Below are positions 10,636-14,824 of a stretch of DNA of 40,217 nt, piece by piece. The stretch is taken from IMG/VR virus record IMGVR_UViG_3300042154_003418, positions 1 to 40,217 of that record. One strand, given 5' to 3'. This DNA comes from a virus (lineage: Duplodnaviria; Heunggongvirae; Uroviricota; Caudoviricetes). Below the pieces are notes generated by a model. The model had not been told where the DNA came from and did no database searches. It saw only the letters and a list, made by a program, of their open reading frames with translations. Made by a program: the position numbers and the translations under genes. Numbering within the stretch: the stretch's first letter is position 1; every line of letters starts with the position of its first letter.

Positions 10636-11649
10636 ATGAACGATATTAAACTACTAGACTTTCCAGGCTTAGCCAGAGACTTTCAACAAACCTACACTCA
10701 ACTACGAGACGAACGATTACGGCTAGCCCAGGCTGTTGCAGAACGCCGCTATCGACAACAGTATAACCAATTGGTCCAGCAATTTTCAGGTTACGATTCG
10801 GAAGCAGGTAGTGACGGCATTGAAGAATCGGTTCGAGAATCACTGGGCGAGTTCGACCCACAAGCGGTTCAACTGCCAGAATCGGTATTACGTGAGTGTA
10901 AACACACGGCTAAGAGTAGTGTGGTTGAAGCTTGGAGTCTTAAAAACTCCCTTCCACAAAAGCTAACTTGGCTGCCGCATCAGCTGTTAGCATACTTTGG
11001 CACTTGGCAGGCTGTTCGTGACGACACAGGCAAGTATAGTGCCACACTAACCTGGGATGCCAACACCAGGGCTCGCGGCGACTACTACGCCTTAGGGTCG
11101 GCATTGCTGGCTACCTCCACTCGCACAAATTTTTTCAAGGATGCGCCTAAGGGTAATCAGCAGTACAAAAGTGTAATCAACCCACTTGTACCAATTATCT
11201 TAGCAGGATTTAAAAAGTATCAAGGCATCAACTATTCAGATTGGAATCCAGTTGGTTTGGAAACTTTGCTAGACCCTGAATTGGCCAAGCTTGTAGGTGT
11301 TTCGGTGCCGGAACTTTCACACAGCGAATTAATTGCGCTACGCAACACTGCCCTTACAGACAAAGAAGGTGCACGAGCAGGTATCCCCAATAATCCAGCT
11401 ACTTGCACCAAGCTCAATCACCTTGGTAATACGGCCATAGGTCACCTACCAAAACTTGCCAAATACATGGTACTACAAACCTGGGCAGCACATCCCAGCA
11501 ATCGTAATGAGTATATGATCTTAGACCCTAACAATTGGGATCACATTCCAGAGCCCCTGATCGGCAAAGATATTTTCTTGCCCAAACCACTTCAAGCCAC
11601 ACAACCCAGAATGGTTACCAGCTATTCGGAACTACCATGGGATGCTTGA
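10636..11649 (+). CDS. D2: T5 D2-like protein
   Basis: NPLVPIILAGFKKYQGINYSDW and LPKLAKYMVLQTW...RNEYMI...PEPL...PW recall T5 D2; precedes a D3-like gene as in T5. Confidence 0.7.
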   Translation: MNDIKLLDFPGLARDFQQTYTQLRDERLRLAQAVAERRYRQQYNQLVQQFSGYDSEAGSDGIEESVRESLGEFDPQAVQLPESVLRECKHTAKSSVVEAWSLKNSLPQKLTWLPHQLLAYFGTWQAVRDDTGKYSATLTWDANTRARGDYYALGSALLATSTRTNFFKDAPKGNQQYKSVINPLVPIILAGFKKYQGINYSDWNPVGLETLLDPELAKLVGVSVPELSHSELIALRNTALTDKEGARAGIPNNPATCTKLNHLGNTAIGHLPKLAKYMVLQTWAAHPSNRNEYMILDPNNWDHIPEPLIGKDIFLPKPLQATQPRMVTSYSELPWDA

Positions 11650-11962
11650 AATGAAATACACCAAAGAAATTTGTGACCACATGGTTCAAGCCTATAATTC
11701 AGGGGTTACGGTGCCACAGCTAGCACAGGAGCTGGACGTGCCCGAACGCAGCATAATTGCCAAGCTATCGAGCCTGGGAGTCTACCAGAAAAAGAGCTAC
11801 TTAAACAAGCGTGGTGAAACGCCGGTGAAAAAGTCAGAGCACATCGAACGCATTGCCATACTCTTGAACACCAACCTAGAATTGCTAGAATCATTAGAAA
11901 AAGTCAACAAAACTGTGCTGGTCATGATCGAACGCGCGCTCACCGACCCTAAACTGCCATAA
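11642..11962 (+). CDS. D3: T5 D3/A2-family HTH DNA-binding protein
   Basis: YT.E...MV..Y..G.TV..LA..L....RSIIAKLS..GVY...KK....I...L....ESLEK.NK; paralog of three other ORFs in the window. Confidence 0.7.
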   Translation: MLEMKYTKEICDHMVQAYNSGVTVPQLAQELDVPERSIIAKLSSLGVYQKKSYLNKRGETPVKKSEHIERIAILLNTNLELLESLEKVNKTVLVMIERALTDPKLP

Positions 11963-12230: not shown

Positions 12231-12282
12231 GACCGCAACAGACTAGGTGTAAAAATGTCGAGCTGACCAAAACACCCAAAAC

Positions 12283-12317
12283 AAAAGCCCCAAGAGTAGC
12301 TAACTCTTGGGGCTTTT
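12283..12317. terminator. Bidirectional intrinsic terminator
   Basis: 15-bp stem AAAAGCCCCAAGAGT/ACTCTTGGGGCTTTT with T tracts in both directions. Confidence 0.85.
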
Positions 12318-12485
12318 GAACAATCACGAGTGCACTCGCTGTTAGTTTTTAGTCTCACACGACGACTTACTGGGGGTACCACCCACGCTAACTGCATCGA
12401 CCCTAAACTGGAGCACGGTCGCAGGGCATTAGGTTATTGCCTGTGTAGCTCTAGCAGGGGAGAAAGTATTGGTTCGGCTCTTCAG

Positions 12486-12918: not shown

Positions 12919-13025
12919 TCATCCTGACCCTAAGGTACGGCAAGCGGTGATGTGGGAAAATCACGCACACTTGCTGTGAGGCCTTAAGGTTTCGCACAAC
13001 TTGCATGTGCTCATCAGAGGGTTGG
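12919..13025 (-). ncRNA. Hammerhead ribozyme, type I
   Basis: CUGAUGA-GCACA[UGCAAGU]UGUGC-GAAA core; 9-bp stem III (ACCUUAAGG/CCUUAGGGU); GUC cleavage triplet; short stem I (CCU/AGG). Confidence 0.8.
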
Positions 13026-13236
13026 TATCGCATACGGGTAACGATCCCGTCTAGGTACCTTGAAAGGGTACTGACCTCACCTGAAGTCGAATGCGATATG
13101 TTAAATTAGCCACGCAGGTATTTTACTACTTACCATACGGAACATCGTCCAGATATTACGGGCTAAAAAGGTTGGGCTGCGACTAGAGTTTGTTCGGTCG
13201 CAATCAAGTTGTTATCCCAGCATCGAGTGCTGAGCC

Positions 13237-13594
13237 TCATAACACCCATAAGTTAATCGGCCAACGTAATGGTCCACACTCAAATCGTAGATATAGGATG
13301 CGTAAGCTAAGTTTTCTGGCTTAAAGGTTGCTGCCTTTCCATACTTCGCCGCTTACTCCAACAGAGCCTATCGCCGTAACAATTATAGTTGCGCTACTAG
13401 ATTACTGCCACCAGCAAGTAGCTGGCCGATTAACTTATGGATTCATAACACCCATAATAAAGTACCCAGCAAATTCTTGCAGAGTTGCAGCATTCTACCA
13501 CTTTCGCCGTCTCGGCCGAGACCTACCGGTGGGGTTAATCTGCATACATCTAACAAGCAAACCAGGCTAGCACTGTCTGGGTACTTTATTATGG
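13237..13594 (-). repeat. Two tandem domains, each closed by a perfect 18-bp stem and followed by an identical 15-nt handle
   Basis: 13246-13263 pairs with 13423-13440; 13452-13469 pairs with 13577-13594; TCATAACACCCATAA at 13237 and 13443. Confidence 0.9.
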
Positions 13595-13682
13595 ACACTA
13601 AGGGCTGTGGCTCGGTTCCCGAAGGTATTCCCCACAATTAAGACGCTGCTTGACGCGACCGCTGTCACCCAATCTATACTAT

Positions 13683-13991
13683 ATTATAACATACAACAGT
13701 TAACATAATCAAGATAATATTTAGTAGCCTTGTTAACTGCTGTTGTCTTATCGCTTTCTAAGTATATATTATATCAAACTCAATTAACAAAATCAACAAA
13801 AGAATTCCAATCGTTTCCTCAAGACTAGCTTCGCAGGTGTGTCGACGTACAGTGACTGGTTAGTGATTGCGGCTGCTGAGGCAGAACTGGCACCGGTTGA
13901 TTAATCACACGGTATTCATTAAGCCATTCCCGACTGGGTTCTTTGTTAATTTCTAAGTATATATTATATCGCGAAATGGGTCACAGATCAA
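13683..13991 (-). promoter_or_regulatory. Three tandem minus-strand promoters upstream of the ncRNA
   Basis: TTGATT-N18-TGnTATAAT (13712-13683), TTGATT-N17-TATAAT (13796-13768), TTGATC-N17-TATAAT (13991-13963); the latter two share the leader ATATACTTAGAAA. Confidence 0.75.
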
Positions 13992-14014: not shown

Positions 14015-14323
14015 TTAAGCAAGTTCTGCAACCAGACGCTCAAGCACTTCGTGGTTGGCCTTTTCCAGGCTTTCAAACACTTCTGGAGCAACGCCGCAGG
14101 CAAGTGCCAGCTTGTCCACCAGTTCGGCTTTACGCACACGGTGTTGGCCGGTGGCCTTGGTTTTGGCCACGTACACGCCTTCGCGGCTGAGTTTGGCCAC
14201 TACACTGCGTACGGTTTTGCCCAGGGTCTCGGCCAGTTGTTCCACGGTCTTGCCCGACTGGTAGCCTGTGACGAGTTCCACGGTTTGCTCGGGAGTGTAG
14301 TTTTGAGGGGTTGCTTTAGTCAT
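14015..14323 (-). CDS. A2: T5 A2/D3-family DNA-binding protein, paralog
   Basis: NYTPEQT...GKTVRSVVAKLSREGVY...ESLEKAN; RBS AAAGGA; the 195-aa track start is an upstream extension. Confidence 0.8.
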   Translation of the reverse strand: MTKATPQNYTPEQTVELVTGYQSGKTVEQLAETLGKTVRSVVAKLSREGVYVAKTKATGQHRVRKAELVDKLALACGVAPEVFESLEKANHEVLERLVAELA

Positions 14324-14363
14324 CATATGTCCTTTGGTTGGTTTCTGCGCTGTTGAAGATTCT

Positions 14364-14700: not shown

Positions 14701-14724
14701 GCACGGTTACCGTGCTGGTTAAAT

Positions 14725-14824
14725 TGTGACCCAGCAGTCACAAACTAGACCGATCAGTCGCAATCTATACCGATCAGTCGGTGACCAGACTGTTCAGTCG
14801 GCATCTATACTGTGCAGTCACAAA
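14725..14824. repeat. Five tandem 20-bp iteron-like repeats with internal dyads
   Basis: AC-N4-CAGTC in phase every 20 bp (e.g. CTATACCGATCAGTCG, CCAGACTGTTCAGTCG). Confidence 0.85.

Follow-up and report, generated by a model that had tools for sequence, protein, structure and literature searches.

Stem-closed passenger RNAs in an exchangeable slot of a T5-like phage genome and their predicted release by host RNase III

Introduction

In a gene-free stretch of a phage genome, two unrelated sequences stand side by side, each closed by a perfect stem and each followed by the same short word. What are these two cassettes, would they leave the transcript that contains them, and what might they do afterward? 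We address these questions for the window, a 40,217-nt stretch of DNA from the start of a complete phage genome of 104,217 nt (IMG/VR record IMGVR_UViG_3300042154_003418), using homologous loci from related viral contigs. Positions are those of the window unless a contig or the genome is named, and the features are collected in Table 1.

Results

Genomic setting and predicted transcript

The phage is placed among the T5-like phages by its structural genes and terminase. Both cassettes lie between two convergent genes for D5-like DNA-binding proteins (11642-11962, plus strand; 14015-14329, minus strand), which point into the non-coding region from either side. A polycistronic precursor would be transcribed by the RNA polymerase of the host from a predicted promoter whose TATAAT box recurs at the equivalent position in relatives; together with a predicted terminator, this promoter delimits a predicted transcript of ~1.4 kb that includes the tRNA-Glu. 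Many copies of the word GACCCTAA and of its complement are found, in both orientations, between 11945 and 14030 of the window and in most relatives. Tandem 20-nt repeats (14709-14808) adjoin a strong plus-strand promoter without a downstream gene.

The cassettes are non-coding, end-paired RNAs in a tRNA-containing transcript, with lengths that vary by non-triplet indels. Given these indels, the 64- and 80-amino acid open reading frames over the cassettes are not conserved, and protein coding was rejected. Rfam searches at the gathering threshold and at E-values up to 10 gave no match over the cassettes, and blastn against cultured phages returned tRNA or chance words only. As a guide to the host, a scan of bacterial genomes for the upstream domain D1 was discarded: its sole match was a 2.9-kb contig in a Saccharibacteria metagenome-assembled genome, probably misbinned phage DNA. 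A permuted tmRNA missed by ARAGORN (L365:8700-9050; genome about 94,700-95,050) has a tag peptide ending in ALAA, which we take to be of a betaproteobacterial type and use as a host hint only.

Table 1. Features of the non-coding locus, in transcript order, with window coordinates
Feature	Position	Strand	Remarks
Sigma70-type promoter, predicted (TTGATT, 18 nt, extended TG-TATAAT)	13683-13712	-	Would drive the non-coding transcript
Domain D1, conserved 5' RNA module upstream of the slot	13602-13670	-	91 distinct homologues
7-nt linker	13595-13601	-	Pairs with the handle; supplies the partner (AG) of the RNase III distal box
Cassette A, 18-bp closing stem and 107-nt three-way-junction cargo	13452-13594	-	
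Predicted mature RNA A (131 nt, 11-bp end stem, 2-nt 3' overhang)	13457-13587	-	6/6 determinants
Cargo A hairpin, self-complementary loop hexamer GCUAGC (13566-13571)	13563-13575	-	Predicted
Cargo A arm tip, perfect 14-nt palindrome, core CGGCCG	13509-13522	-	Predicted
Handle copy 1, stem A end and orphan D2 5' strand	13443-13457	-	RNase III proximal and distal boxes
Cassette B, 18-bp closing stem and 159-nt cargo	13246-13440	-	
Predicted mature RNA B (183 nt)	13251-13433	-	5/6 determinants
Cargo B 5' hairpin, loop UUGCUG (13412-13417)	13407-13422	-	Predicted
Cargo B distal hairpin, loop CAGCAA (13328-13333), complementary to the 5' loop	13323-13338	-	Predicted
Handle copy 2, stem B end and true D2 5' strand	13237-13251	-	
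Domain D2, pseudoknotted module, D1-like layout	13174-13247	-	12/16 pairs with compensatory changes (36 sequences)
tRNA-Glu(TTC), optional	13023-13097	-	Further processing point in the same transcript
Hammerhead-type core, putative, start (CUGAUGAG)	13004-13017	-	Motif present in the window and relatives, downstream in the transcript
Intrinsic terminator, predicted	12282-12318	-	Likely transcript end

Closing stems, the handle and the flanking domains

On the minus strand, two perfect 18-bp stems that open with CCATAA and close with TTATGG enclose 107 and 159 nt, just as the original prediction had described them (~107 and ~159 nt). The identical sequence that it placed after each stem is indeed there twice as a 15-mer, but the first six of these bases belong to the stem, and only GTGTTATGA lies beyond it. 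The 15-mer occurs in exactly two copies, with no other in the 104-kb genome at up to two mismatches, and a bare search of viral contigs with it returned mostly single chance matches. It consists of two parts: TTATGG, the stem end, and GGGTGTTATGAG, the start of domain D2.

Domain D1, which is nearly invariant among 91 sequences, and domain D2 bracket the slot that holds the cassettes, and neither matched an Rfam family. They have a layout in common, with a GGGY...GCCC closing helix, a pseudoknot and a conserved UURAU. A twister-like ribozyme identity for the two domains flanking the cargo was considered and appears unlikely, since the pseudoknot strand order and the conserved residues misfit by eye and Rfam gave no match. 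Within D2, GGGTGTTATGAG takes part in three helices with compensatory changes (36 sequences). A second clade has a different D2 start, and there the sequence after the cargo changes accordingly. The handle is kept in relatives when homologous loci are compared, in line with the conservation that had been expected, and the proposed cassette design stands; the handle is nevertheless not a dedicated cassette tag, because it is the 5' strand of D2, pairs there with covariation, and reads differently in the other clade even after a cargo. Handle copy 1 is an orphan D2 start that would derive most simply from recombination between an A allele and a B allele, and the doubling in the window is probably a recombination scar. 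Contig L308 is an independent case of a doubled handle.

The stems exceed 18 bp. The 7-nt linker on the 5' side pairs with the handle, which extends the duplex to about 24 bp in a register that is fixed in relatives, and linker and handle change together in the second clade. In cassette A of the window, the outer extension is rich in G-U and pairs weakly, with a probability of about 0.25-0.3. Conserved columns hold G-U pairs that assign the RNA to the minus strand.

RNase III register and predicted products

Registers along the stems were scored with the six RNase III determinants of PMC1540722, which derive from E. coli: four in a proximal box of W-W, A-U, W-W and G-C next to the cut, and two in a distal box of U-G and U-A. 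A substrate is also expected to have a duplex of ~22 bp, or one of at least 11 bp to one side of the cut. Twelve alleles were excluded: the stem is offset in five, all of family C, and the other seven are not simple cassettes. The best outer-half register was identical in 50 of the 52 scored alleles, which are related, so that counts are not independent; 27 of them reached 6/6 and 16 reached 5/6. Random 25-bp stems of the same make-up reached 6/6 at any register in 0.7% of cases. The outer-half match reflects in part sequence that is also constrained by D2, and second-clade alleles have only 3/6 in this half.

Cassette A scored 6/6 and cassette B 5/6 in the same register. Their 18 perfect base pairs are extended to about 24, the proximal box is 4/4 in both, and the distal box is 2/2 in A, where the outer half pairs weakly, and 1/2 in B. 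The two pairs between the cuts are mostly A-U in both columns and depart from the G-C that E. coli RNase III targets favor in vivo, a preference rather than a requirement (PMC6212723). As a control, T7 R1.1 was scored, and its upper stem was recovered together with the mismatch known to adjoin the cut. In T5, the annotated 5' ends of RNAIII, RNAIV and RNA2H coincided with the best of nine registers (4/6, 6/6 and 4/6, respectively); the 2-nt overhang was exact in two of the three RNAs, the annotated 3' end of RNAIV being 1 nt short.

Seven unrelated stems of the tRNA island also carry a 4/4 proximal box at the cassette register, and several of them start on the CCA end of a tRNA. At least seven stems starting with CCATA close unrelated RNAs in this island (L365:7700-17000; genome 93,700-103,000, minus strand), where the intervening segment of the two-piece tmRNA resembles another CCATA stem.

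No RNase III gene was found in the phage genome, and the host enzyme is therefore implied. RNase III release of separate small RNAs, one of the routes originally put forward, is thus predicted with a likely cutter on the strength of the register test and the T5 and T7 controls; a phage-encoded form of the enzyme is not supported.

We put the probability that slot passengers are cut from a non-coding precursor by host RNase III at roughly 70%. The slot between D1 and D2 would be a processing point carrying a passenger RNA, two of them in the window, each closed by a duplex of ~24 bp. Host RNase III would cut both strands, 7 nt into the arm that starts with CCAUAA and just before the final UAUGG. 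The products would be linear RNAs, ~131 and ~183 nt long, with protected ends and an 11-bp end stem, and cleavage would free the handle for D2 folding. The released RNAs could then pair through their loops, homotypically at two sites for A and within or between molecules for B. What the sequences show directly are the stems, their covariation, the fixed register, the exchange among relatives and the complementary loops; transcription, the cut and its enzyme, and loop-loop assembly are steps that we infer from them.

An exchangeable slot between D1 and D2

Relatives were gathered through the adjacent gene and a pattern for D1. Among distinct alleles with a recognizable D2, 32 had a short linker in the slot, 8 had a bare hairpin there, and ~49 carried a stem-closed cargo. 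The stem-closed cargos comprise families A, B (short and long), C and D, with at least five cargo families in all, and the slot of contig L182 is filled by a tRNA-Glu. Two cargos in tandem were found three times: in the window, in L308, where the handle is doubled too, and in L343, with no handle in between. Mapped onto the adjacent-gene tree, which is short and poorly resolved, slot content required 18 changes versus 18.8 with shuffled labels. One contig has the same D1 at both ends, followed by an A-filled slot in one case and an empty slot in the other (L242:1-360 and L226:14215-14400), which suggests that A-filled and empty alleles occur in one population. Because the slot varies, its content is scattered on the tree, and empty and A alleles follow the same D1, the cargos are best described as optional and exchanged.

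Alleles without a cargo retain a processing signal in the form of a bare hairpin with the same boxes, a tRNA, or a linker with an RNase E motif. The motif RNWUU, taken from PMC5222698, is present in 17 of 27 short linkers of empty alleles, compared with 4.5 in shuffles. The slot looks like a cut point that is able to carry a passenger. A family A pattern had no copy beyond the slot, and HMMs of all cargo families gave no convincing copy elsewhere in the genome and collected contigs; two family B patterns were uninformative, one without matches and the other non-specific. Further RNAs clamped by CCATA were seen outside the slot in the related contigs L253, L269, L166, L083 and L257, some of them with a palindromic GCGGCCGC segment.

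Conserved loops in the cargos

In cargo A the closing stem meets a 3-bp hairpin and a long, irregular arm at a three-way junction (19 homologues). Compensatory changes were present in 26 of the 38 pairs of the family A structure (19 homologues), and 97% of family A cells were paired, compared with 32-50% in slid controls; because of this covariation and these controls, the stem pairing is judged to be beyond chance. The hairpin loop is palindromic in 18 of the 19 homologues with five different palindromes, and the arm-tip core is perfectly palindromic in 18/19 with four variants. A six-base palindrome in a 7-nt loop cannot pair with itself intramolecularly, so pairing between copies is the simplest reading, and cargo A would pair with itself at two sites. 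Co-fold homodimer energies of cargo A were uninformative, as the closing stem alone can swap strands. Family C has the cargo A layout with a GGCA tetraloop and a tip that is often palindromic, and it scored 33-47 bits against the family A model, in part through the stem.

In all 16 B-type cargos examined, the 5' hairpin carries the loop (U/G/A)UGCUG on a stem that varies yet remains paired. CAGCA was found in 13 of the 16, usually in a hairpin loop, and in the window UUGCUG and CAGCAA match perfectly over six bases. This contact may be intramolecular or join molecules hand in hand. The remainder of cargo B is divergent, its nearest relatives being those of L317 and L149. Taken as predicted contacts, the conserved loops of A and B suggest self-assembly.

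Comparison with known RNAs

T5 RNAIII, RNAIV and RNA2H (AY543070), to which no function is assigned, resemble the cassettes: they are multi-stem RNAs of 100-190 nt from a T5-like phage, with a long end helix and co-transcribed tRNA, and their annotated 5' ends lie at the RNase III register. The cassettes differ from them in lying outside the tRNA island, in the exchangeable slot between two RNA domains, and in their conserved self-complementary loops, and covariance models and HMMs gave no match to the cassettes in the T5 tRNA region. T5 RNAX (L364:13849-14567), a stable RNA of 719 nt, has a promoter of its own and a tRNA-Arg behind it; it may be a functional counterpart of the slot transcript.

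RNase III stalks such as T7 R1.1 and the flanks of 16S and 23S rRNA share with the cassettes a duplex of ~22-24 bp with proximal and distal boxes (PMC1540722, PMC6212723). Stalks are cut in a polycistronic precursor, as is proposed here, but in the cassettes the place of the stalk loop is taken by a small RNA that can be exchanged, and the outer arm also provides the next domain with its first strand. The self-assembling RNAs manA, EGFOA (bioRxiv 10.64898/2026.07.01.735769), ROOL, GOLLD, OLE (PMC12990946) and phi29 pRNA oligomerize via kissing loops, palindromes or GNRA-receptor contacts, and several of them are associated with phages or tRNA arrays. The formation of cages through kissing loops, as in manA and other short phage-linked RNAs, makes assembly of the cargo RNAs plausible as a prediction. 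Conserved complementary or palindromic loops are common to the cassettes and to manA, ROOL, GOLLD and pRNA, assembly of the cassettes being predicted from sequence; Rfam and covariance models of manA, EGFOA, ROOL, GOLLD, OLE and pRNA had no match in the cassettes. A 458-amino acid Ro60/TROVE-like gene with Y-RNA-like elements on its flanks (L365:11884-13260; genome 97,883-99,259) was noted in the phage, and its product is a candidate binding partner of structured RNAs.

Alternative explanations

The stems might merely insulate inserted domains of one long uncut RNA, with the cargos as peripheral domains of a large, ornate molecule. Any insertion between two folded domains requires a closing helix, and the cargo loops could make tertiary contacts within such an RNA. 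We regard this as unlikely, since the extended stem ties up the 5' strand of D2 and thereby works against the folding of that domain, bare hairpins keep RNase III boxes where there is no cargo, a tRNA occupies the same slot in L182, and the annotation of the T5 analogues gives discrete RNAs whose ends lie at the matching register. Recognition of the handle by a phage protein, on RNA or on DNA, for example as a cassette recombination site like an integron attC, would fit the exchange of cassettes, their occasional tandem arrangement (the window, L308 and L343), and the empty and filled alleles behind the same D1 on one contig. It appears very improbable nonetheless: G-U pairing is strand specific and favors RNA, the handle varies with the type of D2 and not with the cargo, the tandem junctions differ in all three cases, and homologous recombination in the conserved D1 and D2 flanks suffices for swapping.

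Both remaining alternatives start from the paired ends. Like the msr-msd RNAs of retrons, the cassettes have paired 5' and 3' arms around a structured insert, and these long arms on RNAs of 140-250 nt resemble the a1/a2 arms; a G directly follows the stem in six aligned short family B members and in most of family B. The cargos could then be retron-type RNAs, or decoys for reverse transcriptases of host retrons or defense systems, but we give this very little credence. The absence of a reverse transcriptase, noted earlier for the window, extends to the complete genome, with a control search that was positive elsewhere; no more than 9 of the 19 family A members have a G at the matching position, so that an invariant branching G is lacking in A; and the would-be DNA copy of B folds no better than shuffles (z +0.66), without an msDNA-like hairpin. 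The corresponding fold of cargo A had a z of -2.14 and an irregular stem. The conserved features are predicted RNA loop-loop contacts, and the suggested likeness to a1/a2 arms was set aside. Ligation of the released RNAs into covalent circles, another early suggestion, would profit from the 11-bp stem that holds the cut ends together. It is hardly to be expected, as no RtcB or RNA ligase family matched in the phage (the T4 Rnl1 search being without a working control) and the annotation of the T5 analogues describes linear RNAs whose ends are defined. RNase III products carry a 5'-phosphate and a 3'-OH, which RtcB is not known to join.

Discussion

Release of slot passengers by host RNase III explains the locus best, and part of it is familiar: RNAs of this kind are already known from T5 annotation, and RNase III stalks are textbook knowledge. 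New, with no counterpart in Rfam or in the literature searched, are the families of cargo, the slot that allows exchange, and the loops that can pair. That search, from which older T5 papers were mostly out of reach, found no paper on these cargo families or on T5 stable RNA processing.

As to function, the weakest step of the account, we offer the tentative guess that the cargos are optional, exchangeable counter-defense or decoy RNAs. We prefer this to a structural or packaging role, given that the slot can be dispensed with and that what it holds is scattered on the adjacent-gene tree. The broader proposal of a T5-like hypervariable slot, in which RNase III-released, multivalent RNAs would self-assemble into dimers, rings, cages or condensates and be exchanged as counter-defense or decoy modules, is more doubtful still.

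For decades the stable RNAs of T5 have stood in the annotation with no function assigned. The locus yields a testable processing rule with exact predicted ends; the rule also fits the annotated RNAs of T5 itself and is therefore testable in E. coli with T5. It also offers several undescribed RNA families of 130-250 nt in which loop complementarity is kept through sequence change, and this recommends them directly for work on natural RNA assemblies by native gel and cryo-EM. For the phages, a single position in a transcript would be solved in three ways, by an RNase III stem, a tRNA or an RNase E-type linker, which makes the slot a compact example of how phages divide up non-coding operons.
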